Below, one piece after another: positions 1 to 51,633 of a DNA stretch of 51,633 bases. This DNA is from a virus (taxonomy: Duplodnaviria > Caudoviricetes), in the IMG/VR virus record IMGVR_UViG_3300030329_004387, positions 1 through 51,633 of that record; one strand, 5' to 3'. The stretch's first letter is position 1, and each line of letters starts with the position of its first letter. The notes beneath the pieces were generated by a model. It was not told where the DNA came from. It did no database searches and was given only the letters and a program-made list of their open reading frames with translations. Made by a program: the position numbers and the translations under genes.

Positions 1-24
1 CAATAGGATAAGGAGTAGGGATAA

Positions 25-555
25 TAGCTTGAGTGTGAGAGCAAGAGCGTATTCCAGTATTATGGTTAATCCTTTAGTAATAAAGGGCGACACCAGAAAT
101 ACCATATTATTATGATATCTCAGTCATAGTTTATAGTATTAAGCGAAGTATTTACTATCTTAATAGGATAGCAAGCTACATTTACCGTTTGTCAACTAAA
201 ATAAGATAAACTAAAGATAGTTAAATCTATTTGAAAAACAGCAATGACGATTAGAAGCAAAAGGTTCTAGTACTTAAATCTCTTGAAATACCAGAGAGCA
301 TATATGACCTCAAGTTTTATATGTGTTGTAGCCAAAGTACTTATTGGGGAGGCATCTTCAATAAGCTATGAGTAACTGCTGAGATAATCTAATCGATAAG
401 AGTGGTGATCTATAATCACTGAACCTGCTAGGATACTATTCGCAAGAGTAGTGGATAAGGACAAAACCTACCATTTGAGCATAGAGAATGCTAACGTGTG
501 GGAACATAGTCCGAAAGTCTTAGTATCCGATAGTCTAATCTCAACTATCGAAGGA
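25..555 (+). ncRNA. Candidate large ornate structured ncRNA (GOLLD/ROOL-like class)
   Basis: ORF-free ~530 nt. GNRA-capped hairpins at 71-86 (GTAA) and 434-453 (GCAA). Long-range helix 116-129 with 366-386. Terminal hairpin 528-550 with loop CTAATCTCA. Confidence 0.7.
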
Positions 556-578
556 TTTTTAATCAATTGGAGAATATT

Positions 579-731
579 ATGGAAATAGTATTTTGGGTAA
601 TGATGGGTATGGGTTTGGTTTTCTTTGGTATAATTATCAAATTATTAGATAAATATGGTACTAAAGTGGACAGATCAATACATCATGATTCAAGACCTGG
701 ATCATATTATGAAATAAGTAATCGTAAATAA
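579..731 (+). CDS. Small membrane protein (50 aa), not in ORF track
   Basis: GGAG SD then ATG; hydrophobic N-terminus MEIVFWVMMGMGLVFFGIIIKLL. Confidence 0.7.
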   Translation: MEIVFWVMMGMGLVFFGIIIKLLDKYGTKVDRSIHHDSRPGSYYEISNRK

Positions 732-740
732 GGAGATAAA

Positions 741-1010
741 ATGGGTTATAATAATAAATTAAAACTAGATACAACAATGTTACAAAGTAATACAGCACAT
801 CATTTAGTGCAATTTATACAGCTACAAAGAGATACCATAAAAAGATTATTAGCACATTATGATGCTAAAAGTGATACTGGCCTTAAAGTTAAAGATATAA
901 ATATTAGAGATCTTGACGATAATTTTGAATATATTGTAAATAAACATTTAGATGCAGTCCATAAAAGAATGGGAACAAATATATTTAATAAAAATGATGA
1001 TGATGAATAA
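741..1010 (+). CDS. Hypothetical early protein
   Basis: TAAGGAG SD; 89-aa ORF. Confidence 0.75.
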   Translation: MGYNNKLKLDTTMLQSNTAHHLVQFIQLQRDTIKRLLAHYDAKSDTGLKVKDINIRDLDDNFEYIVNKHLDAVHKRMGTNIFNKNDDDE

Positions 1011-1030
1011 TTAAGCTATTGACTGGTAGC

Positions 1031-1068
1031 TAGGGAGTTGTTATACAAAGGCCCATTGCAGCTCCCTA
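1031..1068 (+). promoter_or_regulatory. Intergenic stem-loop (processing/stability element)
   Basis: TAGGGAGTTGT 1031-1041 pairs with GCAGCTCCCTA 1058-1068; no U-tract. Confidence 0.55.
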
Positions 1069-1083
1069 AATTTAGGAGGAATT

Positions 1084-1239
1084 ATGGGATATTTAAGTAA
1101 AAGGACATGGGGAAGATCTTTGATTTACTATTGTCCTGTTAATAAGAAAGTATGGCAGTTTAATAAAGATGGAAGTTATAAAATCTATCATGATATGCCT
1201 ACTTATGGATTACCTAGAAAAGTAATGGAGGATAAATGA
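1084..1239 (+). CDS. Hypothetical protein (51 aa), not in ORF track
   Basis: AGGAGG SD; MGYLSKRTWGRSLIYYCPVNKKVWQF...; ATGA overlap with the next gene. Confidence 0.75.
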   Translation: MGYLSKRTWGRSLIYYCPVNKKVWQFNKDGSYKIYHDMPTYGLPRKVMEDK

Positions 1240-1442
1240 AAAAAATATTAAAGTATTTAACAATACCAACAGTATTAATTACAGCAATTATATTTGTTGC
1301 TAAATGTGATGGAACAAAGAAGGCTAGTAATAATATTACAACTTATAAAAGCACTGGATCAAAATATGATGAAGGATCACCTCAAGATTTAATACATAAA
1401 TCACATCCGCTTTTTCCTAAAAATACTGTAGATGATGAATAA
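1236..1442 (+). CDS. Small membrane-anchored/exported protein
   Basis: GGAGG SD; N-terminal hydrophobic segment followed by Cys. Confidence 0.7.
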   Translation: MKKILKYLTIPTVLITAIIFVAKCDGTKKASNNITTYKSTGSKYDEGSPQDLIHKSHPLFPKNTVDDE

Positions 1443-1444
1443 GC

Positions 1445-2010
1445 TTAGTCCAACCAATACTTACGAGCCAATTGAGGCGGTCATGTTATTGGGTAGGGAT
1501 GATGGCCTGGATATTTTCGAGAGCATCTTGGTGGAAGATAGCTAACCATTATATCAATAAGGGCTGGGGGACGACATGGCTGATCACTTAAGACACCTCA
1601 CAAATAACAGATGGATCGCCCCAAAGAATTACCACAATGGATCGTTGTGGCATTAATTATATATGCAGACTGGTTTAACGAGAGGTGAGTGTCGACTATA
1701 GACTCTGTCAGTGGCCTATGGAGTATATATAATAGGATATGTATCAAATAAAAGAAATCATACCTAGCCTCATGGATGGCAATCCGTGGACGAAGTTGTA
1801 AAGTTTTTAGGCGATATAGTAGTAATATAACTATAAAATGAATAATATACATGTGTGGGAATATCCTTCATTACTACACCACACACTAGTTTATATTTGT
1901 AGGTTGTTGCCGTAATAAACCATGGACCCTACATAAGACCTGGCTGGCATACCCTGGGCAGAACACTTCGAGCTCGAGCGGTGCTTATGCAATGTATGCT
2001 GCGCTTTTTA
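1445..2010 (+). ncRNA. Candidate structured ncRNA region (one large or several RNAs)
   Basis: No credible + strand ORF and higher GC than its flanks. Helices 1478-1487/1573-1582, 1565-1569/1619-1623, 1594-1599/1682-1687, 1656-1664/1725-1733, 1771-1777/1782-1788, 1852-1858/1879-1885. Ends in a stem plus T-run. Confidence 0.6.
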
Positions 2011-2031
2011 TAAAATAATGGAGACAAAACC

Positions 2032-2220
2032 ATGAATGATAAATGGGAAGAAGTACCTGATGAGGATTTATGGGAAGATGGTGAATTATCACCTGGAGAA
2101 GTTCAATATAAGATTATTAAAAATGTCTTAGAAACAGGTAATTGGAAGTTAGTAAGAAGACGAGAATGGAATCCTATAGATGCTAAAAAGAAACATAAAC
2201 AAACACCAACAGTATTATAA
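2032..2220 (+). CDS. Hypothetical protein
   Basis: GGAG SD; 62 aa. Confidence 0.7.
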   Translation: MNDKWEEVPDEDLWEDGELSPGEVQYKIIKNVLETGNWKLVRRREWNPIDAKKKHKQTPTVL

Positions 2221-2229
2221 GGAGAAAAG

Positions 2230-2529
2230 ATGACTGAATTAAATGGTAAGAAATATGATTTAATGAACGCAAAAGAAAGAACTGATTATTGGACTGATTT
2301 TGCAGCTGATAAATTAGTAGGTAAGAAAATAATTAAAGTAGAATATTTTAGTAATGGAGAAGCTGAAGAATGTATGTGGTATTCTAGGCCATTATGCTTT
2401 CAATTAAATGATGGCACATGGGTATATCCTATGAGAGATGATGAAGGCAATGATGGTGGTGCTATGGCATACATTGGTGAAAAAGCTAACGAAACATTTC
2501 CAGTACTAGGAATTGAAAAGGAAGAATAA
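2230..2529 (+). CDS. Conserved-looking phage hypothetical protein (DDEGNDGG motif)
   Basis: TAAGGAG SD; motif PMRDDEGNDGGA recalled from other phage early proteins. Confidence 0.8.
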   Translation: MTELNGKKYDLMNAKERTDYWTDFAADKLVGKKIIKVEYFSNGEAEECMWYSRPLCFQLNDGTWVYPMRDDEGNDGGAMAYIGEKANETFPVLGIEKEE

Positions 2530-2539
2530 GAGGTATCTT

Positions 2540-2827
2540 ATGAAGATGAAAGAAAGAGTACAAGATTTCTTGGATGAGATAGGTTACGATTTAGGTTATA
2601 ATGAAAATTTATTACCTAAAATAGAAGACTTAGTAATTGTAGAAAAATACAATATACCTGTATGGGAATATATGGGTTATAGATCTGAAAAGAGTTTTTA
2701 TACTCGAACTAAACCGAGTGCTCTAGCTATTAAAGAAGTAATAGAAAAATATGGAATGTTAGAACGAGAATATTGGAGTAAAGATGATAAAAGACTTACA
2801 AGATTCGGAAAATATGATGAAGAATGA
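2540..2827 (+). CDS. Hypothetical protein
   Basis: Start moved to ATG 2540 after a GAGG SD. Confidence 0.7.
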   Translation: MKMKERVQDFLDEIGYDLGYNENLLPKIEDLVIVEKYNIPVWEYMGYRSEKSFYTRTKPSALAIKEVIEKYGMLEREYWSKDDKRLTRFGKYDEE

Positions 2828-2969
2828 TTTCGAAGAATTGGAGTGGTATAGCGTGTGCTGTACTGCTCCACCTTTATATGATTTGCATGATAATGGTGAA
2901 TATGAACCTTTAGGGATTTGTATGCACTGTAGAGATAATACAACTTTTGAATTATTAAAGGAGAAATAA
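2814..2969 (+). CDS. Small zinc-ribbon protein
   Basis: SVCCTAP...GICMHCRD; start moved to ATG 2814. Confidence 0.7.
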   Translation: MMKNDFEELEWYSVCCTAPPLYDLHDNGEYEPLGICMHCRDNTTFELLKEK

Positions 2970-3097
2970 TGCCAATGCCCAATCACTGTGTTGAATGCGA
3001 TAAACCTGCTCTAGTAACACATGACGGGGTTCCTTATTGTATTAAACACTGGAGAGAAAAAGAAAAGGAGGTCAGTAATGACAAAGATAATAGATGA
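2969..3097 (+). CDS. Zinc-finger microprotein (42 aa), not in ORF track
   Basis: AAGGAG SD; MPMPNHCVECDKPALVTHDGVPYCIKHW (CxxC...CxxH). Confidence 0.65.
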   Translation: MPMPNHCVECDKPALVTHDGVPYCIKHWREKEKEVSNDKDNR

Positions 3098-3353
3098 AAT
3101 AAGAACTAGAATTTCAGATTTAGATAGTATTGATGATTTAAATATTATAAGAGATATTATTTCAAATCAAAGAAAATATCTAGCTCAGAAAAATGCTTTT
3201 GGTTTAATAAAAGGCGACAAAGTTAGAATAGTAGGTTCTGGTAAAATTGATGAAGGCTTTATAGAGAAAATTAATAGAACTAGAGCTGTAGTTATGGTAG
3301 GAGATGTAGGTTGGAATGTTCCTTTTGAAATGATAAGGAAAGTTAATGAATGA
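3078..3353 (+). CDS. Hypothetical protein with KOW/SH3-like C-terminal barrel
   Basis: AGGAGG SD before ATG 3078; LIKGDKVRIVGSG...GFIEKINRTRAVV. Confidence 0.7.
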   Translation: MTKIIDEIRTRISDLDSIDDLNIIRDIISNQRKYLAQKNAFGLIKGDKVRIVGSGKIDEGFIEKINRTRAVVMVGDVGWNVPFEMIRKVNE

Positions 3354-3409
3354 GGAATATTGGTTAGATAAAGTAGATGTATGGATAGAAAATCAAATTA
3401 AAGGAGATT

Positions 3410-4036
3410 ATGATGACGGAAGAAAATCAAAAATCAGTGGAAAAATCGTCAGAACCCGCAATTGGGTCACAAGAATGGGTAAAAGATTGGATGCACAGAA
3501 GAAAAGTGCACAGAATGAGCAAAGCACAGTCACTAAAAGACTTAGCAGCATATCTAAAAGATCTCGGATATAAATATATAAGAGTATGGTATGAAGGAGC
3601 TGGTGATAGTGGTGAATGTTTTGAAGCAGAAGGTTGGAAAAAAGAAATAAATCTTGAAAAGAAAGATCATAGAGGTTGTTGGCCCGATGTATATGAATCT
3701 AAACCTTGGAATCATAATAAAGAAGAAGATTTTGATGAATGGAAAGGTATGACTAGAAATCAAAAAGATCTAGAAGAATCTTATGAACTATTTAGAAAGA
3801 ATCATCCAGATCAAAATCTTCAATCTGAATTACATTATGAACTTGTAGAACTTGTAGATTATGATTGGTATAACAATGAAGGTGGACAAGGTGAAGTAGT
3901 ATGGGATCTAGAGAAAGAAGAATTCCGTGTAGATGGACAACAAAATAGATATGCAGCTGTAGATGTAAAAGAAACATACTTTATGGATGGTAAAAATCCT
4001 GAAGTTTGGCATGGTGATGAGGTTTATGAAAGATGA
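3410..4036 (+). CDS. DUF6878-like protein
   Basis: Motifs YEGAGDSG and DWYNNEGGQG; AAGGAG SD. Confidence 0.7.
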   Translation: MMTEENQKSVEKSSEPAIGSQEWVKDWMHRRKVHRMSKAQSLKDLAAYLKDLGYKYIRVWYEGAGDSGECFEAEGWKKEINLEKKDHRGCWPDVYESKPWNHNKEEDFDEWKGMTRNQKDLEESYELFRKNHPDQNLQSELHYELVELVDYDWYNNEGGQGEVVWDLEKEEFRVDGQQNRYAAVDVKETYFMDGKNPEVWHGDEVYER

Positions 4037-4380
4037 AAGCCTTTAATCATTGTAAATCAAGTGTAAAATACTTTGGTGGTAAAGAAATGGATTATCATCA
4101 AATACATGCATGGTTTGATAAAAGTAAGGATCATTATGGCGATATTAGACATCGTGCTTTAAGACATCATACACAAGGTATAGCAGAATGTCAATTATGG
4201 TTTGGAATAACAATAAAGAACTCTGATGGTAAAGATATACCAGTACGTTCTATAGCAGAACAACATATAAGAGAGGATCTAGGCTTTATTCCTACAGTTC
4301 AAGATTGGCTTAAAGAGATCAAACCAAAACCTTGGATGGCAAGTACTAAGAAGAATACTAAGAAGATGAATCTAATGTAA
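4033..4380 (+). CDS. DUF6915-like His-rich protein
   Basis: H..SS...FGG...DY..IH.WFD.SK....D.RHRALRHH..GI and VR.IAEQH..EDLG..P...DW pattern. Confidence 0.75.
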   Translation: MKAFNHCKSSVKYFGGKEMDYHQIHAWFDKSKDHYGDIRHRALRHHTQGIAECQLWFGITIKNSDGKDIPVRSIAEQHIREDLGFIPTVQDWLKEIKPKPWMASTKKNTKKMNLM

Positions 4381-4385
4381 AATTA

Positions 4386-4682
4386 AGGGAACAATGTAGC
4401 GTGGATATCCTGACATCTAACTAAAAGCAACGTGTTGGACTTGTTCCCTAATAAATTACAAGTATGTAACTAGTTTAGTAGCAGTCCTGAGAAGTTACAC
4501 TAAGTTTATTCCAGGAACTTTATATAAGCGTGCAATAAGACCATTAGCGTAAGCTTCGGCAGTACTATTATAAAGCACTACTATTAAACGAAAAAAAAGC
4601 TTGTATAAATTTAGGGAGGCAGTGCGTAACCTGCAGGTAGACGAATGATCATAAGCTTCGCATCATTTACTGTCTCCTTAAA
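4386..4682 (+). ncRNA. Three tandem closed-stem structured RNA cassettes
   Basis: Closing stems 4386-4394/4441-4449, 4457-4463/4599-4605 and 4610-4623/4669-4682, joined by short AT linkers. Confidence 0.6.
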
Positions 4683-4686
4683 TAAC

Positions 4687-4715
4687 TTGGAAAGTTTGTC
4701 CGCTTTTAGTAAATT
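4687..4715 (+). promoter_or_regulatory. Sigma70-like promoter for the replication operon
   Basis: TTGGAA-N17-TAAATT upstream of the ERF gene. Confidence 0.5.
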
Positions 4716-4741
4716 ATAACCCCCATTAGAAGGAGAAATCA

Positions 4742-5206
4742 GTGGAAGAAAAGAATGAAATCAAAGGGATAGCTATCCCTAAAGCAGTATTTAGTGAACG
4801 AAGACAAGAAATATGGAAATCAAATCAATTAGATAAATTAGGAGAAGCATTAGCTAAAGCACAAGGTGAAATGAAAGGTGCTAAAAAAAGCAGTGTTAAT
4901 CCATTCTTTAAATCTAATTATGCTGATCTACATACAGTAATAGAGTCTTCATTCCCATTTCTAAGTAAATATGGATTATCTGTAATACAAGGAAATGATA
5001 GTGATGAAAAATCATTTTATGTAACTACTATGTTGTTGCATAATTCTGGTCAATGGATTAAATCAAAATTGAAAATGCCAATAACTAAAGCAGATGCACA
5101 AGGAGTAGGAGCTACTATTACTTATGCTAGAAGGTTTGCTTTATCTGCAATGGTAGGTATTGCTCAATATGATGATGATGGTGAATCGATAACTAATCAT
5201 AAATAA
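4742..5206 (+). CDS. erf: ERF-family ssDNA annealing protein
   Basis: ALAKAQ...NPFFKSNYADL; H.SGQWI; QGVGATITYARRFALSAMVGI...DDDG. GTG start with AAGGAG SD. Confidence 0.9.
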   Translation: MEEKNEIKGIAIPKAVFSERRQEIWKSNQLDKLGEALAKAQGEMKGAKKSSVNPFFKSNYADLHTVIESSFPFLSKYGLSVIQGNDSDEKSFYVTTMLLHNSGQWIKSKLKMPITKADAQGVGATITYARRFALSAMVGIAQYDDDGESITNHK

Positions 5207-5215
5207 GGAGAATGT

Positions 5216-5773
5216 ATGGCAATTAAAACAATGTCAGCTTCCACAGGAGGAAGTAAATTCGAAGAAGGATGGCATCAAGTTAATATAACTAAAGCAGAAT
5301 ATGGAAAGTATGAAGGAGATGTTCCTGGTACTGACAAAAACTATTTAGATATATGGTTTGAAGATTATCCTGATAATATGAATCTTCGTGTATATGAAGT
5401 ATTCAACAAAACAACTAATGAAGAGTTCAAAGTTGCTAACATATTCAAATATGCCAATGCTGGTATAGTTGGTGTGTTAAAAGATCCAAATGGTAAGCAT
5501 CCATTAATTCAATTTGATGATGAGCCTAAAGGTTTAATAGGTAAAACTATAAATATCTATATATATAAAGAGAATAAAACAGGTAATAATTATTCTCGTA
5601 TATTTGATAATATAGCACCTATTGTACAAGAAGGTGAACATTTATCATTTAAAGCTACAGATGTAGATTCAATTAAATCTGGAGTTGAGAAAAGAGTAAA
5701 AGGAATGTTAGAGAAAACAGCAGCTACAGCTAATGGAGTTGCTCAATCTGAACCATTTGCTAATCAATTTTAG
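5216..5773 (+). CDS. Probable single-stranded DNA-binding protein (OB-fold, DUF669-like)
   Basis: Follows ERF; FEEGWHQVNITKAE N-terminal motif; aromatic C-terminus. Confidence 0.55.
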   Translation: MAIKTMSASTGGSKFEEGWHQVNITKAEYGKYEGDVPGTDKNYLDIWFEDYPDNMNLRVYEVFNKTTNEEFKVANIFKYANAGIVGVLKDPNGKHPLIQFDDEPKGLIGKTINIYIYKENKTGNNYSRIFDNIAPIVQEGEHLSFKATDVDSIKSGVEKRVKGMLEKTAATANGVAQSEPFANQF

Positions 5774-5885
5774 GATGACCTGGATTAGTCGGGTTTACTA
5801 ATATCCTAAATATTCTGTTGGGAATCAGTAGCGAAATGCGGGTAGGACAACACGGGTGTCGTGTCGGAATAATTAGGTAAACTTA
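5769..5885 (+). promoter_or_regulatory. Structured intergenic leader with alternative pairings
   Basis: Stems 5769-5776/5803-5810, 5777-5783/5789-5795 and 5811-5817/5865-5871; alternative 5791-5802/5872-5884. Confidence 0.45.
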
Positions 5886-5896
5886 AAGGAGAGAAA

Positions 5897-6193
5897 ATGA
5901 CAGTAAGAGAACATATTACAAGAGAGTTAGAAAACTTAGAAAACTCACCAATAAATACATTCAGAACATCAGATATACAAGAATTATCATTTGAAGGAAA
6001 GATGGAATTTGGTAAGTATTTAGGCAGTCCTGGAACATATACTAGAGAGTTTAGAAGAATGAGAACTGATGGTATATTAGTAGTAGATAAACTTAATAGA
6101 AAAGAAAGACAACAAGTTTGGAGACTGATAAATGTTGGAAAAATAGAAGATCATTTAGATGATCATATTGATTATTCAGATTTACCATTTTAA
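5897..6193 (+). CDS. Hypothetical protein, possible winged helix, acidic DLPF tail
   Basis: AAGGAG SD; SPGTYTREFRRMR helix; C-terminal DYSDLPF. Confidence 0.7.
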   Translation: MTVREHITRELENLENSPINTFRTSDIQELSFEGKMEFGKYLGSPGTYTREFRRMRTDGILVVDKLNRKERQQVWRLINVGKIEDHLDDHIDYSDLPF

Positions 6194-6202
6194 GGAGATA
6201 AT

Positions 6203-7936: not shown

Positions 7937-7941
7937 ACAGT

Positions 7942-8004
7942 TGAAAGAGATGTAAGTCCCGAATGTCCTAGCTATATGCTGAATGACCTAGGCATTCTCT
8001 TTCA
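7942..8004 (+). promoter_or_regulatory. Intergenic stem-loop with internal direct repeat
   Basis: TGAAAGAGA 7942-7950 pairs with TCTCTTTCA 7996-8004; GAATG(T/A)CCTAG at 7961 and 7981. Confidence 0.5.
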
Positions 8005-8021
8005 TACAAATAGGAGAGAAT

Positions 8022-8834
8022 ATGAATCCATATCAAGAAATAAGAAAAGTACCATTAGATTATAGTGGTATACAATCATCAGCTTATTCCGTTCAAAGAT
8101 TAGATGAAGAAAAAGGATGGAAAGAAGCGGGAGTGGTAGGAGCACATTATATGTTATTACCAAACCAAGAAGTAAAAGATATTGCAAGTGATATAGTTGA
8201 GTCAGCTTATATAGATTTTGAATTAGACAAAGAGTTCTTTAATGGTAAGAATTTTATGTTATCGTATAAAGCTGTAGATAGTATAGCAACTGTTGATCAT
8301 ACTGCAAAAGATGAAGATATAGATAAGTTAAATCTAGGTATTCAATTTTGGAATAGTTATGACGGTTCAAGATCATTTGGATTTTCATTAATGCTGTATA
8401 GATTAATATGTACTAATGGAATGATGAGTAAGCAATATCTACAGAACAATAGATTTAGACATGCTCCTGGTTCTGAAGATTGGAATACACAGTTAGAATC
8501 TATGGTGCATCTTATAAATGCTACTCAAGATGGAGATAATAATAGTGTAAATACTATGATTAATGGTATTAAAGAGCTAAATGATTATAGAGTTACATCA
8601 AAGAATTTAGGCAATATTAGGCACAATTTCCTTAAAGATATACCAACAGGTGTATGGGGTGAAATAACTGATAAATTCCTAGATCCTAATGGCGAATACT
8701 ACTCAGATACTAATGGTTGGGGATTACTTAATTCTGCTACAGATATATTGTGGCATAAGAAGAAACCAACACTTGCATCATATAATCAAAATGCTGTTAT
8801 AACAGATGGTTTAATTAACGCAATATGTGCTTAA
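8022..8834 (+). CDS. DUF932/DUF945-family protein
   Basis: NSYDGS...YRLICTNGM motif; W.L.N..T near the C-terminus. Confidence 0.85.
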   Translation: MNPYQEIRKVPLDYSGIQSSAYSVQRLDEEKGWKEAGVVGAHYMLLPNQEVKDIASDIVESAYIDFELDKEFFNGKNFMLSYKAVDSIATVDHTAKDEDIDKLNLGIQFWNSYDGSRSFGFSLMLYRLICTNGMMSKQYLQNNRFRHAPGSEDWNTQLESMVHLINATQDGDNNSVNTMINGIKELNDYRVTSKNLGNIRHNFLKDIPTGVWGEITDKFLDPNGEYYSDTNGWGLLNSATDILWHKKKPTLASYNQNAVITDGLINAICA

Positions 8835-8857
8835 TTAGAAGCGGATGATACGTCGGA

Positions 8858-9014
8858 AAATTAAGAGAGCCAATAACTGGTCCTGTAAGAATGTGGACTC
8901 ATTCATCGCGTTGAATGTAGGGTTCGAATCCCTTGTCTTACATCTTGTATGGGTTTTATCCCTACTAACACATCTAGCGGACAAGAAAAGGAATATGTGA
9001 GGCTCTCTTAATTT
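8858..9014 (+). ncRNA. Structured RNA containing a tRNA-like domain
   Basis: Perfect 14-bp closing stem 8858-8871/9001-9014; acceptor-like stem 8884-8890/8936-8942; T-arm AGGG-TTCGAAT-CCCT 8919-8933. Confidence 0.7.
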
Positions 9015-9042
9015 AATAAATAATAATATTAGGAGAATAAAA

Positions 9043-9221: not shown

Positions 9222-9261
9222 GAAATAGAAGTATCTCGTGAAGATATAAAGGAGAGAAAAA

Positions 9262-9766: not shown

Positions 9767-9777
9767 AAGGAGGCAAT

Positions 9778-9927: not shown

Positions 9928-9936
9928 GGAGAAATC

Positions 9937-39832: not shown

Positions 39833-39840
39833 ATTATCTC

Positions 39841-41904: not shown

Positions 41905-41906
41905 TT

Positions 41907-42922: not shown

Positions 42923-42946
42923 TTTATCCCCCTTTTTTATTGTTGT

Positions 42947-42976
42947 AAGTTATTCAGATTTCTCTGAATTTTCCAA
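42947..42976 (-). promoter_or_regulatory. Sigma70-like promoter for scaffold/capsid
   Basis: TTGGAA-N18-TAACTT; resembles the 4687 promoter. Confidence 0.4.
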
Positions 42977-45253: not shown

Positions 45254-45266
45254 TAAATTCTCCTGT

Positions 45267-45770
45267 TTATTTTATCAACTCTTCTAATTTATCCCATTCT
45301 ATATCAACATCTTCATGGGGTTCACCTAATATATTATGTTTAAAGTTTTCATCCCCAATCTTTTCAACATGCGCCAATTCATGTATTAAAGTTCCCATAG
45401 GATTTTTAGAGGCATCATAGTCAACCCAAATAGTATCAGAAACTCCTGGGCTATGTCCATAGGCGGTAAAGCCTTCCATGCCATATAAATCACCTGAATA
45501 TAAAACTAATTGATCTGTATCTAATTTATTCTGTATATACTCTAAAGCATTTACATTCTCTCCAAAATCTCTTGTAATTGATTCAGAAGTATTTCCTGGA
45601 TATTCAAAAGAAACCAAATTATCATAATTATCAAACAGATGCGATAAATCAATATTTTTTAAAATTTCTTGTTCTTCAAAAGATAATTCTAAAGGTTTAG
45701 GCTCTTTAATTTTTGTTTTATAATAAGGCTTTGCCCCAAAAAGCCAATAAGGATCATTTAGTTCAGACAT
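45267..45770 (-). CDS. Zincin-like metallopeptidase domain protein
   Basis: TLIHELAH (HExxH); start moved to ATG 45770 with GGAG SD. Confidence 0.6.
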   Translation of the reverse strand: MSELNDPYWLFGAKPYYKTKIKEPKPLELSFEEQEILKNIDLSHLFDNYDNLVSFEYPGNTSESITRDFGENVNALEYIQNKLDTDQLVLYSGDLYGMEGFTAYGHSPGVSDTIWVDYDASKNPMGTLIHELAHVEKIGDENFKHNILGEPHEDVDIEWDKLEELIK

Positions 45771-46194
45771 TTTTATCTCCATTAACAATTCTTATTCTAG
45801 GACTCTCTATACTTTTAGCTATCTTAATACTATCTAAATCCTTAAAATGTTTTTTTATATTATTATCAGCTTCTTTCATAGAGCTATAAGAATCATATAT
45901 TCCAAAATGCTCATTTTTTTCAAGCAGTAAATCAACTTCAGATTCAGAAAGATCTTTACCGTATTTTTTTGTAGGATATAAAATCCATTTAGTTGGATTA
46001 TCTAAATCATCTGTATCATAAGAAGTTTTTATATTTGATCCTTCAGCTTCTTCCTGTAAAGTCTCTGCGGGAAATGTATCAAAATCCAATGGCAAAGTCC
46101 CGCTATATTTAAATCCGTAATCTATCCTAATAGGATTATCGACTTCAGAAATAAATTCCATTATTTCCCTTTCTACAGTATTCCAAATTTTCAT
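45763..46194 (-). CDS. Hypothetical acidic protein
   Basis: 143-aa ORF in the operon. Confidence 0.7.
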   Translation of the reverse strand: MKIWNTVEREIMEFISEVDNPIRIDYGFKYSGTLPLDFDTFPAETLQEEAEGSNIKTSYDTDDLDNPTKWILYPTKKYGKDLSESEVDLLLEKNEHFGIYDSYSSMKEADNNIKKHFKDLDSIKIAKSIESPRIRIVNGDKNV

Positions 46195-46200
46195 AAGACT

Positions 46201-47265
46201 TTATTTAAATATATCTTCGTTATCAATATCTTTTAATTTATTAATAATATCAACTTCATCCTGTGTTCTTGTATGATATTCTTTGCCTTGCCACATAAAA
46301 GTAGGGACATCTTCTTTTTCCATTCCCAAGGTAGATCGACCTCCTCTAGAATGTTTGAATTGTTTTCCAAAATTAGCATATTCTAATACACCATCTTCAG
46401 TTACATTAATACCTTGTCTACCTAAATACTCATGTAACATTGCAAGTTTATGCTGATCGCCTGTACTAGGATAATCTACGCCCTCTTTACCTACAACTCT
46501 ATCGCTTACTTCGGTATAATATTCTTGTAATGACATACCTGGTGAACCAGAAAAATTTAATTCACTTGAAAGACTGATATTTTCTCCAGCAAGACCTCTA
46601 TTTGCTAAATCTTCCTCATCCATATATTTCTCATCCCAAGTAACCCCTGCTCCTTGAGCTACTTCTTCATCAGACAAATAACTAGTATCTCCTTGAAAAC
46701 TATATGTCGTATCATCATATTGCCCTCTAGATAAATCCTTTTCTTTTTCAAGCGTAGCCAACATGCCCTCAAACTTATCTCTAGCTCTGTATTCTAAATC
46801 ATCCTCACGACTACCTCCTGTTGCAGATGAGCCTTCTAAAGGTACTAATGCTCCAGTTTTAGGATCTATAATAGAGTAATCTCCAGTTTCATCACTTTTA
46901 TACATTGTGTATGGAGCATTTTCATCATGCCATAAATAATCTTCTTTAGCAATATTTTCATCCATTACAAAGTTTCCTTCGGCATCATAAGTTCCAGGAA
47001 GAAAATCTCCAAAAGGAGAAATATCCCATTGACCCATAGGCGTATAACCTTCAAAATCTTGTGCACCTTGTATTGCTGCAGCCTGTCGATCAACTTCACC
47101 CTGAACACCACCTCCGCCTGAATAATCCACTCCTATATCAAAACTATAGTCTGGGACAACTTCTTCTAGTTCACTTGCTGCAGTTATAGGCTCAATATTG
47201 CCTTCAAATATATTTTCATCATCAGCAGGCAATAAACTTCCTACATCTATATCTTCTTGTACCAT
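46201..47265 (-). CDS. Highly acidic protein with C-terminal F.W.GK.Y.T motif, possible virion cargo
   Basis: AAGGAG SD; TFMWQGKEYHT. Confidence 0.7.
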   Translation of the reverse strand: MVQEDIDVGSLLPADDENIFEGNIEPITAASELEEVVPDYSFDIGVDYSGGGGVQGEVDRQAAAIQGAQDFEGYTPMGQWDISPFGDFLPGTYDAEGNFVMDENIAKEDYLWHDENAPYTMYKSDETGDYSIIDPKTGALVPLEGSSATGGSREDDLEYRARDKFEGMLATLEKEKDLSRGQYDDTTYSFQGDTSYLSDEEVAQGAGVTWDEKYMDEEDLANRGLAGENISLSSELNFSGSPGMSLQEYYTEVSDRVVGKEGVDYPSTGDQHKLAMLHEYLGRQGINVTEDGVLEYANFGKQFKHSRGGRSTLGMEKEDVPTFMWQGKEYHTRTQDEVDIINKLKDIDNEDIFK

Positions 47266-47275
47266 CTTTACTCCT

Positions 47276-48832
47276 TTATGCTGTTACCCAGCTTTTTGCT
47301 TTCGGTTTCTTTTTATACCATCCACTCTTTCCTTCATGCATACCTTGAGGTGGATGAGCATATTTACATGCATAAGCCAAGGCATCTATTGTATCATCAT
47401 GAGCCATACGAGGCCCAAAAGTCATTATTTCTCTATGAAGATCATACTGAGTTTTTTTAATATGAACCTGGCCGACTGAGAATCTTTGAGCCATTATTTC
47501 TTGTATTCGATCTCTTTTACTCATTCTGTTACCAGGTTTTTCTTCCTTAAAAGGAATAATAAATTCATTTCTTCTACGCATTTCAGCTCTAATAGCTTGA
47601 AATACTGGTTTACTCATTGTAGTATCTTCTATTGTAAAAAGCGTAGGGTTGTAAAATTTTGCATATTGAAATATGTGATCTACAATACCCTTTTTATCAG
47701 TTCCAGGAATGCCCATGACAGGAAGTGTCCTATCCCTAATATAATCCAAGACATATATATTATTGTCGGGGGTAACAGCGATAGCAATAATAACGGAAAA
47801 GTCAGAATTACGCCTAGCAGAATCAGTTGCTGGATCAACACCGATAAAAATATTACACGGTTTCTGATCGTCTCCGTCAGGTAAAATGTACGATATCCCG
47901 TTTTCTTGATCATTTATAAACTTACCATCCCAGTACTTTATATGATCCCTATTAAATATAGAGTCTTCTTCACTTTGGACTTCCATCATATATTCTTGAT
48001 AGAATTTTTGAGGAGTTCCAGAGTCTTGATAAAACTTTTTCTTTCTTTGCATCTCTTTATGACCAAACCATGAAGGCCATAATGGAGTTCCATCCTCTTG
48101 TAAAGCTTTATGTGTTATAACTTTCCAGCTATAATCTTCTTTTTGCTTCTTTGATAATTCATATCCTGTTAAAATCTTCTGTATAAAGGCATCATAGTGA
48201 ACTGGAGTCCCATTTATTCTAAGCCTGCCTGTTTTCGGTTCCAAGGCAGGAAATACGACTGCTGTAACAAGATTTGAGATTTTGGATCTAGATTCTGGTG
48301 TGATTGTATTGTTCTCATCTTCAAAGTCATCAAGAACAATAAGATCGTACCGCTTATGAAGCTTAGCACCACCACGAATACCAGAAAGATTAGACTTAGA
48401 AATAAGTTTGCAGCCATTTTTAAGCTCAATATCATCCTCTGTCCATTTTCTCCCTTTTAAATCACCAAAATAATATCTTATCTTGTCATTGTATTCTATA
48501 TGATACTTTATATAGTCAAGATTAGGTACTGATATCTTACTAGAAGCAGCTACCCATCCATAAAATAAAGGATCATCCTTACTAAAGCAAAAATCATGCA
48601 TTATATTACATTTAGTTAACACGGTTTTACCATGTCCCCTAGGCAATATAACTGCTAGTTGCCTTACATCTAAATTAGAAAGAGCGTCTGCAACCTCATA
48701 ATGAAAGAAAGGTGTTTCAGAACGCATAAAATCTTCAGGTAGAAACAATTTTCCAAATGCTATAAGGTCACTATATGCTAATTGGAGCTCTTCTTCGGCT
48801 TTATTTATATTATTTAAGTTAATATTTGCCAA
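47276..48832 (-). CDS. terL: Terminase large subunit
   Basis: PRGHGKT Walker A, LIVLDDFE Walker B, GTP motif, GVDPA and HDDTIDA nuclease motifs; TTG start. Confidence 0.93.
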   Translation of the reverse strand: MANINLNNINKAEEELQLAYSDLIAFGKLFLPEDFMRSETPFFHYEVADALSNLDVRQLAVILPRGHGKTVLTKCNIMHDFCFSKDDPLFYGWVAASSKISVPNLDYIKYHIEYNDKIRYYFGDLKGRKWTEDDIELKNGCKLISKSNLSGIRGGAKLHKRYDLIVLDDFEDENNTITPESRSKISNLVTAVVFPALEPKTGRLRINGTPVHYDAFIQKILTGYELSKKQKEDYSWKVITHKALQEDGTPLWPSWFGHKEMQRKKKFYQDSGTPQKFYQEYMMEVQSEEDSIFNRDHIKYWDGKFINDQENGISYILPDGDDQKPCNIFIGVDPATDSARRNSDFSVIIAIAVTPDNNIYVLDYIRDRTLPVMGIPGTDKKGIVDHIFQYAKFYNPTLFTIEDTTMSKPVFQAIRAEMRRRNEFIIPFKEEKPGNRMSKRDRIQEIMAQRFSVGQVHIKKTQYDLHREIMTFGPRMAHDDTIDALAYACKYAHPPQGMHEGKSGWYKKKPKAKSWVTA

Positions 48833-48880
48833 TTATTCTCCAAATCTGCATTATAAAATACAAAAACTTGCAATTATATA

Positions 48881-49411
48881 CTATATTTTTTCAGTTTCTG
48901 TTGTTTTTCTTTCCACTCTGTCTAGAAAATCGCTTTTTTCTGCAACAAAGTCTCTTAAATCATCAACTTTGCCACTTGGAGGCATTGTATTTACATCTTC
49001 TTTTATTGTAATATTTTCAGATGACACAAATAAAGGAGCACTTATATCTTCTATGCTTTTTCTAGCTAAGAAATTTTCTGCTTCAAGTTCATTTTCAGCT
49101 GTTTCAGCTCCTGCTCTTATAAGTTGATTTGAAAGAAAGTCCTTAGGATAGTCTTCAGATAAAGAAACCATTCTTCCATTTAAGGTTTCCAATCCTTCTT
49201 GCTTGGGAGTCGGAAGAGAGTCTTCATGTTGGTACAAACCCCAATCTCCACTATTAACTAATTTTGTTAACGTACCACTAGCCTGTCCTAATCTATATAA
49301 TGCTCCATCAGTACCTCTAACTAAATAGAAAGTTCCGAATTTATCTGTACTAGGAGGACCTAAATAAGTAGATACTCCTATATAACTATCTTTTGTTCCT
49401 GATTCTGCCAT
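48881..49411 (-). CDS. Hypothetical acidic protein
   Basis: TAATG coupling with the endolysin gene. Confidence 0.7.
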   Translation of the reverse strand: MAESGTKDSYIGVSTYLGPPSTDKFGTFYLVRGTDGALYRLGQASGTLTKLVNSGDWGLYQHEDSLPTPKQEGLETLNGRMVSLSEDYPKDFLSNQLIRAGAETAENELEAENFLARKSIEDISAPLFVSSENITIKEDVNTMPPSGKVDDLRDFVAEKSDFLDRVERKTTETEKI

Positions 49412-49806
49412 TACTTTTTCCTTAATTCAAAATGTGGAAAATCATCAAATTTATTATCTTGTACCTTGAAGTTCATGTTCCAGTCTCCTCCCCAGCGAAG
49501 AGTAATACCCATCCTAGCAGCCACCCCAAGCACGAACCCAGCAAAAAGTGTCTGACGCTCTCTGTCAGCCCAATCCACGGGGTAAGGAGTAACATCAACA
49601 GCACGACTAGGCTTTGTATTATGCCTACCAAAAGGGTAACGGACTTTAGTCTTTCCTTCTTTGAATAATTGTTCCTGTCTTCTTTCATCTCTGTGACCTT
49701 CTAGTACACTACAATCTATATATTTAATTACTTCATTAAATACTTTTTGTAGATCTTCATGACAGGTAGAAAGTCTTTGTTTGCTTTTTTTTCCAAAATA
49801 TGGCAT
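49411..49806 (-). CDS. Endolysin, peptidase M15 (L-Ala-D-Glu peptidase-like)
   Basis: EGHR...Q, RHN...SRAVD, RWGGDW, D.PHFEL. Confidence 0.9.
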   Translation of the reverse strand: MPYFGKKSKQRLSTCHEDLQKVFNEVIKYIDCSVLEGHRDERRQEQLFKEGKTKVRYPFGRHNTKPSRAVDVTPYPVDWADRERQTLFAGFVLGVAARMGITLRWGGDWNMNFKVQDNKFDDFPHFELRKK

Positions 49807-49807
49807 A

Positions 49808-50542
49808 TTATTTATCCGAAATTTCTTTTGGTCTTTCAGCTTCTTCTATTTGCTTAGCATCAAAGCCTTGAAAAACGGCACCAGAAATTTGCGTTACCTT
49901 TGTTTGATTCTTGTCTTCTAAATCCATTATATCTGATAACTTAAAGAGCGCTTTTAATTTAGTCTCATCCTTTTCAGATGACATAGCTATAGTATTAATA
50001 TGTCTTAAAACGCTTGTTTCGTTTATACCTAGTTCTTCTAATACTGGTTTTAACTCTTCTTTCATAGCTGTCCTTATCCTTGTTGTTTTAATTAATTGTC
50101 CAGCACGCAATCCTGCATAGTGCGGGTCATTAGTCGGAAATGCCTTTAGATACGCCATGCGAGCATCCATTCCAGATGCTAAATACTGGACAAAAATTTC
50201 CTCACGGGATGTTAAATTATTCCTGTCCTCTAATATTTGGTTCCTTTCGACATTACCTCCAAAACTATATATATTAACTCTTTTAGAGGTATCCAACTTT
50301 GTCTTATCAGAAACTAAAAAAGTACCAGTACAGGTACCTATATATCTTACTTCTCTATTCTTACCTTTTGGCTTGATCATCTTGCCTTCTCTTAATATCT
50401 GAATTATACATCCATCATCTGCAAGAACCCAATCAGATAAGCAGCCATCCCGCCAATTCTTTTTGTAAACTAAATCTTTTGGTATTTCTTCCTTACTATC
50501 AAATACCGTATTATTAACCTTATTAACTATATAATGTCTCAT
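49808..50542 (-). CDS. terS: Probable terminase small subunit
   Basis: LT.REE.F..Y...G.....AY..AF HTH; KLKAL..L oligomerisation helix; upstream of terL. Confidence 0.65.
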   Translation of the reverse strand: MRHYIVNKVNNTVFDSKEEIPKDLVYKKNWRDGCLSDWVLADDGCIIQILREGKMIKPKGKNREVRYIGTCTGTFLVSDKTKLDTSKRVNIYSFGGNVERNQILEDRNNLTSREEIFVQYLASGMDARMAYLKAFPTNDPHYAGLRAGQLIKTTRIRTAMKEELKPVLEELGINETSVLRHINTIAMSSEKDETKLKALFKLSDIMDLEDKNQTKVTQISGAVFQGFDAKQIEEAERPKEISDK

Positions 50543-50572
50543 CTAATACTCCAAATCCCGTCAGGGTTTTGG

Positions 50573-50776
50573 TTATGTTATTCCAAGAGTATTGCCTTCC
50601 AAATCACTCAACATATCAGCCAATTCCTCAGGAACAACTAAATCTTCACCATCAATATTTAAAGTAGCATTACCTTCATTCTCCATGTATTCAGATAGAT
50701 GTAATACTTCTTTACTAGCTTTATCAATTACGATCTTTAACTTATAAATATGTATATCTGGTTTCTTATCAGCCAT
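50573..50776 (-). CDS. Hypothetical protein, first gene of the late operon
   Basis: AGGAGG SD. Confidence 0.7.
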   Translation of the reverse strand: MADKKPDIHIYKLKIVIDKASKEVLHLSEYMENEGNATLNIDGEDLVVPEELADMLSDLEGNTLGIT

Positions 50777-50789
50777 AGTGCCTCCTGGA

Positions 50790-51021
50790 TATAGTTAGCC
50801 CCTGTAAAAGACTAAGTCTAATTTTAAAATATTAACTTTAAATTTCCCCAGAGCCAGTTATTCTCTCCCATACTCAAGTTTATATTAAAGCAGTTTTTAT
50901 CGGTTATCGGGGACAAACCCTTGATCCTATTTGGAGGGCAACCCAACTTCTGACCCAATATAGCAGAACGATTCGCACGTGTACTAACTGGGTGATAGCT
51001 AAAAAATCATAACTACCGATA
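50790..51021 (-). ncRNA. Structured 5-prime leader RNA of the late operon
   Basis: Multibranch domain closed by 51015-51021/50898-50904 at the predicted start site; a second domain carries the GAGTATGGGA..AATAACTGGCTC motif. Confidence 0.55.
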
Positions 51022-51025
51022 TTGA

Positions 51026-51055
51026 AATATAACTAAGGATAAAGAATAAAAACAA
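51026..51055 (-). promoter_or_regulatory. Sigma70-like late-operon promoter
   Basis: TTGTTT-N18-TATATT; predicted +1 near 51019-51020. Confidence 0.5.
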
Positions 51056-51076
51056 GAGGTTTTAAAAATTGTAGCA

Positions 51077-51190
51077 TTTTGGTGTGTGCTCTTTTATGAA
51101 ATGGTGTACCCCTTAACAGGGTTTTTGGTTATCACTTTTTAGTTGTTTTTGGTTTGAGATTTTTTGGTTTATGATGTTATTTTTTAGAGT
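51077..51190. repeat. T-tract repeats TTTTT(G/A)GTT
   Basis: Copies at 51122, 51136, 51146, 51161; partial copies at 51077 and 51181. Confidence 0.6.
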
Positions 51191-51218
51191 ATATTCTAAT
51201 AATTAAGGAGCATAGTTA

Positions 51219-51464
51219 ATGGCTGATAGATATCAAAAGAGTCAGATAGCTAAGCAATTTAATAGGAATAGTGACATTGAGATTAGCACTGAAAGACGTG
51301 AGCAAATCATGGGGTTAGCCCTAGCTCATGCTGCTTCTGGTAATGATCATATGTTTCAATTACTGTTTAACACAGTAGCTAAGACTACGACTCAAGCTGA
51401 GTTGCAGGCTGATATAGCAGAAACTAAAGCACTTGTCGCTGGACTTATTAAACAGCTTAAGTAA
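51219..51464 (+). CDS. Hypothetical protein, probably the first early gene
   Basis: TAAGGAG SD; 81 aa. Confidence 0.75.
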   Translation: MADRYQKSQIAKQFNRNSDIEISTERREQIMGLALAHAASGNDHMFQLLFNTVAKTTTQAELQADIAETKALVAGLIKQLK

Positions 51465-51633
51465 ATCATCTGGCTATGACTATTTGCATGCAAAATCATG
51501 CGAAAGATTCGGGGTGTGGTGAGCCTGGCAACAGAAATTCACTTATTTACCTTATTATTATATATATATTATTACTATGATCTTGTGAGCACAATGGATT
51601 TGGATTTTATATTTATATATTCCCCACTCTTTG

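Follow-up and report, generated by a model that had tools for sequence, protein, structure and literature searches.

What kind of phage carries, in little more than 50 kb, a giant late protein with an RNA polymerase motif and no recognisable DNA polymerase? This question is raised by the IMG/VR virus record IMGVR_UViG_3300030329_004387 (Duplodnaviria; Caudoviricetes), a stretch of 51,633 b that was analysed in its entirety and is called here the window; the record is classed as 'linear', with a CheckV completeness of 91%. Our answer, to which we assign a probability of about two in three, is that the window represents an almost whole genome from a lineage of marine podoviruses of ~50-61 kb that is coherent and abundant, has been neither cultured nor, so far, described, and would package a two-barrel RNA polymerase (RNAP) and use the replisome of the host. 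The kind of system, a phage bringing its own two-barrel RNAP, is known, and what is new is the lineage, a view that is largely supported by the data presented here. A bolder version, put forward tentatively and with worse than even odds, would make it an undescribed family-level and globally abundant group of marine podophages, the first outside Crassvirales and Bacteroidota hosts to deliver an RNAP of the QDE-1/gp66 class, carried within an ejection protein as large as that of N4; for replication this group would depend entirely on the host replisome, and its first transcripts would include a GOLLD nanocage RNA.

The protein at the centre of this question, a putative virion-delivered RNAP, is encoded by an open reading frame (ORF) of the minus strand (14086..23565) and comprises 3159 amino acids (aa). 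It belongs to no Pfam or PHROG family, and no Pfam RNAP family matched it, its modelled part (aa 1750-2650) being the one that resembles two-barrel enzymes. Its N-terminal part, which is conserved and includes a hydrophobic stretch rich in glycine (~aa 130-165), is followed by the predicted two-barrel (double-psi beta-barrel) RNAP domain (~aa 1750-2650; 15616..18318, minus strand) and by a C-terminal part. Within the domain lies D2369-A-D-F-D-L-D2375 (16441..16461, minus strand), a catalytic-type motif of the DFDxD form that stands out by its invariance in alignments. Residues 1750-2650 were matched by 38 proteins of 2,541-3,227 aa (E <= 0.001; 22-50% identity), and the stretch from P2367 to S2377 showed no or almost no variation across all 22 aligned full-length homologues, as it did again in 17 of 17 sequences when the domains from IMG/VR loci were aligned on their own. 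Residues K1869, P1870, K1890, T1891 and A1892 in the first barrel region, together with R2331 and P2333 in the second, were also invariant. Polymerases of the QDE-1/gp66 class have two such barrels, basic residues being conserved in the first and the aspartate triad lying in the second, and the domain agrees with this layout. Such conservation of the DADFDLD motif and its neighbours across sequences sharing 22-50% identity argues for catalysis. A match of 'QDADFDLDK' in Wza proteins was discarded as a chance short match.

The structure of the domain was predicted with AlphaFold2 for aa 1750-2650 (24 sequences in the input), the other 2,258 residues of the giant lying outside the model. The mean predicted local distance difference test score (pLDDT) was 72.9 and the predicted template modelling score (pTM) 0.72, with strands at model residues 95-140 and 571-631. 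The top row of the Foldseek search was gp66 of phage phi14:2 (6vr4_A; E 1.5e-3, probability 0.97), and 49 of the best 50 rows corresponded to RNAPs, the remaining one being a proteasome chain. When the best 998 chains from Foldseek were aligned with VIA-align, QDE-1 reached a Z of 11.3 (root-mean-square deviation (rmsd) 5.7, 396 residues aligned), maize RDR2 11.1 and gp66 10.3 (rmsd 5.4), the last with the longest alignment of all (530 residues, model 1-901 on chain 908-1787); the three are tied within 1 Z. Non-virion RNAPs of Thermus phages followed (P74 gp62, Z 8.1; P32 gp64, Z 7.7), and the large subunits of multisubunit RNAPs stayed at Z <= 6.1. Altogether 13 of the 998 chains reached Z >= 8, and the top 12 rows were all single-chain two-barrel polymerases. 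The giant RNAP-motif protein proposed in an earlier reading made from the letters of the window (hereafter the sequence-only reading) is thus borne out by the invariant motif and by the structure matches of the modelled domain, which, as predicted, is a single-chain two-barrel RNAP of the QDE-1/gp66 class.

From the gene order and from the virion status of gp66 in phi14:2, we infer that the giant is most likely packaged in the virion, ejected into the cell and active there. The earlier description of the giant as lying 'among ejection genes' follows from its position; the large neighbouring proteins matched no family, and their role in ejection is kept here as a presumption. A different function of the two-barrel domain could also be envisaged, in which it is not an early-gene transcriptase and instead primes replication, copies RNA or persists as a structural relic in an ejection protein. 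Its best structural neighbours, QDE-1 and RDR2, are RNA-dependent enzymes, QDE-1 having both DNA- and RNA-dependent activity (PMC9508822), and the window yielded no motif for an early promoter. Nevertheless, the aspartate motif and its neighbours are kept invariant across sequences of 22-50% identity, and the position and context of the gene match those of gp66, a proven early transcriptase whose early transcripts are likewise described as having no common upstream motif (10.1101/2020.03.07.982082). We therefore regard a role other than early transcription as quite unlikely, and take the domain to be a putative early transcriptase in what follows.

The sequence-only reading had further supposed that the window belongs to a lineage different from the crAss-like phages, and several lines of evidence agree with this. 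Megablast of 25 kb of the window against phages gave no match. The large terminase (TerL) showed at most 26% identity to any GenBank phage, with matches to Schitoviridae, Zobellviridae and an Alicyclobacillus phage; the portal gave three weak tblastn matches among phage records, and tblastn searches against 50,697 phage records found no match for the capsid and nothing for the RNAP domain. A TerL tree of 16 rows (the window, five relatives, phi14:2 and nine phages chosen from the 25 best-listed of 647 matching records) placed the six rows of the lineage in a clade of their own, with a Shimodaira-Hasegawa-like approximate likelihood-ratio (SH-aLRT) support of 100, apart from Schitoviridae (three rows, SH-aLRT 100) and from Zobellviridae (four rows); the deeper forks were weak (70) and are made unreliable by long branches. 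Together with the lack of any similarity to phi14:2 and of Crass families described below, this clade supports the idea of a separate lineage.

The lineage appears both coherent and widespread. Searched with a profile of the RNAP domain, 1.84 billion proteins yielded 124 representatives at E <= 1e-3, most of which were ~3,000-aa proteins with the domain at ~1620-2530, or fragments of such proteins; the profile reached only giants of the window's own family and their fragments, the weakest rows not having been checked for crAss proteins. An alignment-based scan with the same domain yielded 35 IMG/VR loci, and a scan with the single protein yielded none. The primase-helicase of the window gave 645 clusters at E <= 1e-5, the best 120 being 74-100% identical and many of them on contigs of 45-58 kb. 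Twelve of the 13 relatives rated >= 90% complete measured 49.6-61.0 kb, the other one 82.9 kb. Several homologues of the giant bear TARA ocean names, and of the words sampled from a 10-kb stretch, fractions of 0.95 and 0.92 occur in two runs labelled as marine metagenome, one of which may be the source sample. A metatranscriptome run held 0.16 of the sampled words, from which no claim on expression is drawn. No published description of such a group was found in the literature searched, and catalogues of marine viral clusters may list it.

The ORFs of the window are arranged in two convergent arms, one on the plus strand (567/741..10879) and one on the minus strand (10918..50776), with an additional plus-strand ORF at 51219..51464. 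The GC content varies between 0.29 and 0.37 (0.327 overall), and the GC skew, +0.18 to +0.40 within 1-10 kb and negative beyond, changes its sign at ~10 kb, where the arms converge, so that the ORF map and the skew together confirm the two-arm genome described before. No tRNA gene, terminal overlap, terminal repeat or noteworthy repeat family was found in the window, and Pfam and PHROGs scans, which covered 52 window ORFs, gave no match to an integrase or repressor family. Both ends of the window fall inside a non-coding stretch. Gene-by-gene comparison showed that three relatives (G003, G004 and G005) are cut at different points of one shared circular gene order, each of them covering the circle, and an identical giant is also recorded on a contig of 52,694 b, the longest one on record for it, which exceeds the window by 1,061 b. 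Contigs of four marine runs placed on positions 1-3000 formed a strain mosaic of many short pieces with 90-99% identity and small skips, with a 19-b insertion in one run, following position 176. Co-occurring strains are hypervariable in this early region, whereas the TerL proteins of the relatives G001, G003 and G004 share 76-89% identity.

No recognisable DNA polymerase of the classical families was found among the genes of this lineage. Family A, B or C enzymes were absent from the Pfam and PHROGs scans of the window ORFs, a six-frame search of the window with PF00476 (PolA) found none, and six-frame searches with PF00136, PF03175 and PF07733 (PolB, protein-primed PolB and Pol III alpha) gave hits in 0 of 5 records each, the five being the window and the four fetched relatives; control genomes gave positives in the same searches. 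PolA and PolB were also absent from the records of 35 out of 35 IMG/VR relatives, including all 13 rated >= 90% complete and one with direct terminal repeats. Likewise, Pfam scans of 65 proteins of >= 120 aa from two relatives rated 100% complete, four boundary-spanning ORFs being left out, revealed no DNA polymerase. The lack of a recognisable DNA polymerase is hence sustained by profile searches for PolA, PolB and PolC, both in the window and across the lineage. It might be argued that the record is incomplete and that a polymerase lies in the missing part, since the record is linear, is rated at 91% by CheckV, has no terminal repeat and may have lost the 5' half of its GOLLD RNA. Three relatives, however, break elsewhere in the same circular order and show no polymerase, none of the 13 relatives rated >= 90% complete encodes PolA or PolB, nor does the record with direct terminal repeats, and the longest contig with an identical giant extends only 1,061 b beyond the window. 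As the relatives are circular permutations of one gene order, a polymerase hidden in a missing piece is very unlikely, and we leave this explanation hardly any weight.

More attention is deserved by the 577-aa primase-helicase (6203..7936, plus strand), with a DnaB-like helicase at aa 365-512 (PF03796, E 2.5e-10; phrog_16345 and phrog_19; DnaB matches in the PDB) and a predicted archaeo-eukaryotic primase (AEP) domain at ~aa 58-203. Residues D68, D70, S100, G101, G103 and H105 were invariant in 10 of 10 sequences of this protein, and we take D68/D70 and S100-H105 to be the DxD and sGxGxH motifs of archaeo-eukaryotic primases. The model of the protein is of low confidence (pLDDT 58.5). In a wide VIA-align search of 48,161 chains, rows 2-11 were AEP catalytic domains (Z 5.8-8.1) aligned with model residues 58-203, the best of them being the LigD polymerase domain (Z 8.1, rmsd 3.7, 132 residues aligned), with small subunits of eukaryotic and archaeal primases at Z 6.8-7.6 and, as further neighbours, Prim-PolC and the primase-polymerase of phage NrS-1 (Z 4.4). 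The protein's N-terminal portion is, as judged from the model, a predicted AEP-type primase-polymerase domain. No window ORF matched the DnaG/Toprim family, and no family match was obtained among them for IHF, ribonucleotide reductase (RNR) or other genes of nucleotide metabolism.

Some AEP enzymes extend DNA. It is conceivable, then, that the phage makes its own DNA, with the AEP domain fused to the helicase, or an unrecognised ORF, serving as the replicative polymerase, in which case the absence noted above would be true for the classical families only. This would agree with the AEP fold and with the invariance of the DxD and SGxGxH motifs, as well as with the structural neighbours named polymerases (the LigD domain, Prim-PolC and NrS-1), the many ORFs without a family and the unexplained early protein of 670-701 aa in G004 and G005. 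On the other hand, the pLDDT of 58.5 and the middling Z values of 6-8 call for caution, the fold does not separate a primase from a polymerase, and the set formed by Erf, single-stranded DNA-binding protein (SSB), helicase and RusA is one found in lambdoid phages that use the host polymerase. We judge synthesis by a phage enzyme unlikely, though far from negligible, and favour the use of the host replisome. The description of the window as minimal and without DNA polymerase is supported for the whole group, with the polymerase capacity of AEP enzymes as its one qualification.

Translation signals offered a view of the host. Cores of Shine-Dalgarno (SD) sites (GGAG, GAGG or AGGA at -20..-4 of crude ORFs, with the same script for all genomes) were present before 44 of the 58 window ORFs (76%), compared with 9.9% of random positions, and exact AGGAG before 21 of 58 (1.5% of random positions), in agreement with the claim that most genes carry such sites. 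In phi14:2 the core preceded 10 of 114 ORFs (9%; background 7%), in Vibrio phage ICP2 42 of 69 (61%; background 10.1%) and in the four relatives 32-41 of 56-70 ORFs (46-70%; background 8.9-11.2%). Strong AGGAG sites point to translation by SD pairing and hence to a host that is probably not a member of the Bacteroidota, and the peptidoglycan endolysin together with the bacterial-type replication genes indicates that the host is bacterial. The host is therefore probably an SD-using, non-Bacteroidota bacterium; the contrast of 76% with 9% in phi14:2 and 61% in ICP2 makes this part of the sequence-only reading likely, and a name for the host did not emerge from the scans. The giant was found in none of the GTDB species genomes scanned. 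With TerL, the GTDB scan returned one relative, a 21-kb contig in a metagenome-assembled genome (MAG) labelled as a Poseidoniales archaeon, and proteins of other relatives appeared under the MAG labels Marinimicrobia and Jacksonbacteria (P0034, P0039; locus L049 is among the labelled relatives). The labelled relatives are on phage-sized or short contigs, one cluster being recorded on a 222-kb contig. Three incompatible labels on phage-sized contigs suggest mis-binning by composition, and we deduce no host from Marinimicrobia, Jacksonbacteria or Poseidoniales labels.

The promoters described earlier did not stand. The motif TTG-N16-21-TAnnTT occurred 130 times in the whole window, compared with 149.5 +/- 10.6 in shuffles, and six times in 21 upstream regions, compared with 3.4 +/- 1.9 (six or more in 28 of 200 shuffles), which is not above chance in either case. 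Sigma-70-like sites in 1-11200 were fewer than expected by chance (45 versus 61.3 +/- 7.8), and the Bacteroidota-style motif TTTG-N17-21-TAnnTTTG was found four times, compared with 2.52 +/- 1.64 (at least four in 20 of 100 shuffles). Four of the five observations of the sequence-only reading (the arms, the giant RNAP-motif protein, the SD sites and the lack of a DNA polymerase) hold and that of the promoters does not, so that it is confirmed in part.

A number of results weigh against the view of a marine lineage with a packaged two-barrel RNAP and a borrowed replisome. With regard to the domain, the aspartate-bearing loop was poorly modelled (model residues 618-623 have a pLDDT < 50), Foldseek returned no row at E <= 0.001, phmmer of the giant against PDB sequences gave no match, a profile of the giant against the same sequences found no polymerase, and hhalign of the domain profile with gp66 residues 604-2180 returned a probability of 0.8%; the kinship with RNAPs is visible at the level of fold and motif only. 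Packaging, ejection and activity of the giant are reasoned from gene order and analogy. The AEP domain, or one of the many ORFs without a family, could supply DNA synthesis. The record is linear and 91% complete, the ends may lack ~1 kb, and the contigs of the four marine runs placed on 1-3000 gave no answer on the sequence beyond the contig start. A promoter motif was found for neither polymerase, SD usage bears only indirectly on the host, and the 1050-aa protein that follows the giant does not have the zincin motif HExxH reported for gp65 of phi14:2.

Two non-coding elements are relevant to the way in which the early arm could be expressed. The first is a GOLLD-like large RNA at 141..547 (plus strand), in which the conserved 3' half is recognised: RF02032 matched it with 112.6 bits (E 6.6e-29, model positions 1-416), under the gathering threshold of 150. 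The match begins 141 b from the contig start, so that the variable 5' half may run off the record, and the minimum free energy (MFE) of folding for positions 1-566 had a z of -3.95. GOLLD was over the threshold in G003 (L043:2604-3013, minus strand; 173.4 bits) and in G005 (L039:4902-5284, plus strand; 153.1 bits), which makes three of five records examined when the sub-threshold match of the window is counted; none was found in the two pieces of G001 scanned, nor in G004 at the gathering threshold. A cryo-EM study places this RNA in phages and prophages, often near tRNAs, its 3' region being conserved and its 5' region variable, with one marine example downstream of a Met-tRNA (10.1101/2024.12.08.627333). 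Here, GOLLD is a known kind of RNA in a compact and well-defined phage context. Directly downstream of the GOLLD of G003, an 82-nt element (L043:2509-2590, minus strand) matches only both ends of the transfer-messenger RNA (tmRNA) model (62.3 bits; gathering 47), with an acceptor stem, a T arm and a discriminator-like end and no mRNA-like part, a free-standing tmRNA-type tRNA-like domain; in the window, positions 51436-51546 gave a faint alpha_tmRNA match only (E 0.14). The early region of G004 contains a tRNA-Met (CAT) at L038:3902-3975 (minus strand); neither in the window nor in three further relatives was a tRNA present.

The second element (51049..51160, plus strand) is located 5' of the first plus-strand ORF and shares 74-80% blastn identity with G001, G003 and G004, though the proteins are far more diverged. 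It combines the invariant A/T-rich box TTTTAAAAATT.T.G.ATTTT with a GC hairpin, after which comes a T run, and with GTTATTTTTGATTT. Such an arrangement could serve as an origin, as a packaging site or as an early promoter or other regulatory region, and we see in it the foremost candidate for the point at which early transcription starts. Apart from these, the non-coding stretch 8835-9030 contains a tRNA T-arm-like sequence, GGGTTCGAATCCC, at ~8921-8935; its MFE z was -2.08, parts of it are 91-97% identical in locus L020, and neither ARAGORN nor Rfam called anything in it. Non-coding stretches 1443-2031, 4381-4741, 5774-5896 and 50777-51218 gave no Rfam match and folded unremarkably (z -1.7 to +1.6).

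Taken together, the data suggest the following course of infection. The giant would be packed in the capsid with its large neighbours, by analogy with gp66 and, as a second analogy, with the ejection machinery of N4, and would be ejected into the cell together with them and with the DNA, where the glycine-rich hydrophobic stretch at ~aa 130-165 could help it to cross the membrane or to sit in it. Its polymerase domain might then transcribe the early plus arm from the element at ~51.05-51.16 kb, through the small ORF, the GOLLD RNA and the many small ORFs that follow. The early and middle products, namely the Erf, SSB-like, AEP primase-DnaB-type helicase and RusA proteins, would subsequently recruit the replicative DNA polymerase of the host, since the phage has no polymerase of family A, B or C, and the late arm would be transcribed by the RNAP of the host. 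That the giant is packaged and ejected, which genes it transcribes, that host polymerases are used and which group the host belongs to are points that we infer; the gene content, the RNAP fold and motif, the lack of recognisable DNA polymerases throughout the lineage, the SD usage and the lack of sequence kinship with Crassvirales rest on the data themselves.

In the direction of transcription, the minus arm encodes the small terminase (TerS), endolysin, TerL, portal, a 304-aa protein, an SU10-type capsid protein, adaptors, a metallophosphoesterase, large proteins (530, 1420, 529 and 875 aa), the giant and a 1050-aa protein. The endolysin (131 aa; phrog_465, E 2.4e-38) and the small terminase (244 aa; PF03592, E 6.8e-08) occupy 49411..50542, the large terminase 47276..48832 (phrog_38, E 1.1e-79), the P22-type portal 42950..45253 (PF16510, E 1.2e-56; phrog_156) and the SU10-type major capsid protein 40405..41904 (PF17236, E 3.5e-20; phrog_1328), all on the minus strand. 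Two head-tail adaptor-like proteins of 93 and 226 aa (38460..39424, minus strand) matched PF24175 SU10_adaptor with 25.8 and 18.8 bits, both under the cut-off of 27, and the metallophosphoesterase (34937..35716, minus strand) matched phrog_221 (E 6.7e-24). The large late proteins (875, 529, 65, 1420, 85 and 530 aa; 23579..34397, minus strand) belong to no family, are partly conserved in relatives and are presumed from their position to function in the tail or in ejection.

The late arm ends with the 1050-aa protein (10918..14070, minus strand), kept in all four fetched relatives; HExxH is absent from it and from its four homologues. Its look-up in the Atlas gave unnamed viral clusters, one similar cluster having LPD39 in 28% of its members, which is a weak lead only. 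The last 30 residues (10918-11010, minus strand) are extremely rich in arginine, RSKRRRRRRGRDRGRGRRTRDR..., and this C-terminus could serve for nucleic acid binding or as a packaging or ejection signal. On the plus arm, many small ORFs accompany the Erf-type annealing protein and the SSB-like protein (4742..5773; PF04404, E 7.4e-25; phrog_378, E 8.3e-05), the primase-helicase, a DUF932 protein and, at the end of the arm, a RusA-like Holliday junction resolvase (10350..10706; phrog_244, E 3.4e-07). A conserved early trio absent from the window was observed in two relatives, G004 (37823-41548, minus strand; L037:17823-19384 and an ORF spanning L037/L038) and G005 (L039:6720-10555, plus strand); it is formed by the protein of 670-701 aa, with no Pfam, PHROG, PDB or Atlas match, a 303-aa JAB-domain protein and a ThiF-family protein, and an AAA_24 ATPase and a PD-(D/E)XK nuclease are found near it.

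A crAss-type device in a genome of half the size, and free of sequence kinship with crAss phages, widens the known range of this class of enzymes. The origin of the QDE-1-type polymerases can be traced with ~100 further diverse sequences, which form a second and independent set, and nature provides here a minimal system in which the infection would be started by a single packaged enzyme, all else being borrowed from the host. The group being frequent in marine metagenomes, marine microbial ecology has an interest in its host and in what it does to that host, and the presence of GOLLD at the head of the early arm puts an RNA of unknown function in a defined and compact phage context. If the bolder version of our reading is true, the strategy of bringing one's own two-barrel polymerase would be older and wider than the crAss lineage, and the proposed phage origin of the eukaryotic RNAi polymerases would gain a second phage anchor, the domain being as close in fold to those enzymes as gp66 is.

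Among known systems, QDE-1 and RDR2 are the best structural matches of the domain and share with it the aspartate-triad type of active site; they are, however, enzymes of cells and not of virions, 900-1400 aa long and only 8-12% identical to it. Schitoviridae have a giant of similar size and position, both they and the window are of podovirus type and the TerL proteins are distantly similar (24-25% identity); by contrast, their genomes are ~20 kb larger, the window has no DNA polymerase and its TerL falls outside the three Schitoviridae rows of the tree, and the N4 enzyme is T7-like, not two-barrel. Giants of N4-like phages, of ~3,000-3,500 aa, are coded at the end of the late arm and presumably ejected with other proteins (PMC13434306). 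In Thermus phage P23-45, a two-barrel RNAP is fused to a giant protein of the virion which passes into the cell (10.1101/2022.12.01.518664), although that system is a siphovirus tape-measure fusion in another genome context, and the non-virion enzymes of Thermus phages P74 and P32 match the domain more weakly (Z 7.7-8.1) than QDE-1 and gp66 do. Zobellviridae (ICP2 and cobaviruses) provided the best tblastn matches of TerL, at ~25% identity, and are, like the window, marine podoviruses with two arms, their genomes measuring 40-50 kb; unlike the window, ICP2 possesses a DNA polymerase gene and lacks a giant RNAP protein, the Zobellviridae gave no match to the window portal or capsid, and their TerL forms a separate clade.

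The closest parallel in organisation is found in the Crassvirales, of which one genome, that of the Cellulophaga phage phi14:2 (Steigviridae; 167 ORFs), was compared. Its gp66 (PDB 6VR4) is, like the window giant, a single-chain two-barrel RNAP with a DFDxD-type motif in a very large late protein; the motif of crAss RNAPs is DFDxD, with DFDID in gp66, the enzyme enters the cell with the DNA and transcribes the early genes, and middle and late genes are read by the host RNAP (10.1101/2020.03.07.982082). Two neighbours of gp66 are also virion proteins, and some phages have them fused to the RNAP; for gp65 a zincin domain with HExxH is described, and intergenic RNAs are highly transcribed (10.1101/2020.03.07.982082); the long non-coding stretches among the early genes of the window can be likened to the latter. 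According to its annotation, phi14:2 has a plus-strand replication arm that includes RusA, as in the window, and a convergent minus arm with TerL, portal, a 374-aa protein, capsid, a metallophosphatase and, further on, a 1340-aa protein, a 1797-aa protein, the RNAP of 2180 aa and a last protein of 1421 aa. Layout and late-arm order (TerL, portal, a protein of ~300 aa, capsid, metallophosphatase, large proteins, RNAP and a last large protein) are thus the same in both genomes, the metallophosphatase g075 standing at the place of the window metallophosphoesterase and the 'RNAP-associated' virion protein g065 at that of the 1050-aa protein, which does not share the zincin motif.

These likenesses, together with the fold match of the RNAP to gp66 over the longest alignment (530 residues) and a similarly low GC content (0.327 versus 0.296), might indicate that the window is a reduced but genuine member of the Crassvirales infecting marine Bacteroidota, whose hallmark proteins have diverged beyond recognition by sequence. 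We find this distinctly improbable. No window protein matched any of the phi14:2 ORFs with phmmer at E <= 10, blastp and five-genome profiles gave nothing below 0.001, and hhalign of TerL with that of phi14:2 reached a probability of 14.5% over 38 columns around the Walker A motif only. Crass_capsid (PF23898) and CrAss_Ring_1 (PF24228) matched phi14:2 with 664.8 and 250.8 bits, respectively, and no window protein at E <= 0.01. The hallmarks listed for Crassvirales comprise eight conserved structural genes including IHF, PolA or PolB, a universal primase akin to those of Bacteroidetes, and Bacteroidetes hosts (PMC10136315), whereas the window has no IHF, PolA or PolB, RNR or other nucleotide metabolism, and no DnaG-type primase, carrying an AEP in its place. 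Its capsid is of the SU10 type and not of the Crass type, its genome measures 51.6 kb compared with 100.4 kb, its giant 3159 aa compared with 2180 aa, and its SD use is 76% compared with 9%. With no sequence kinship, Crass families, IHF, DnaG primase or DNA polymerase, the window is not a member of the Crassvirales by the features tested, and our preferred reading is that of a separate marine podovirus lineage that, at entry into the cell, nonetheless appears to work like one.

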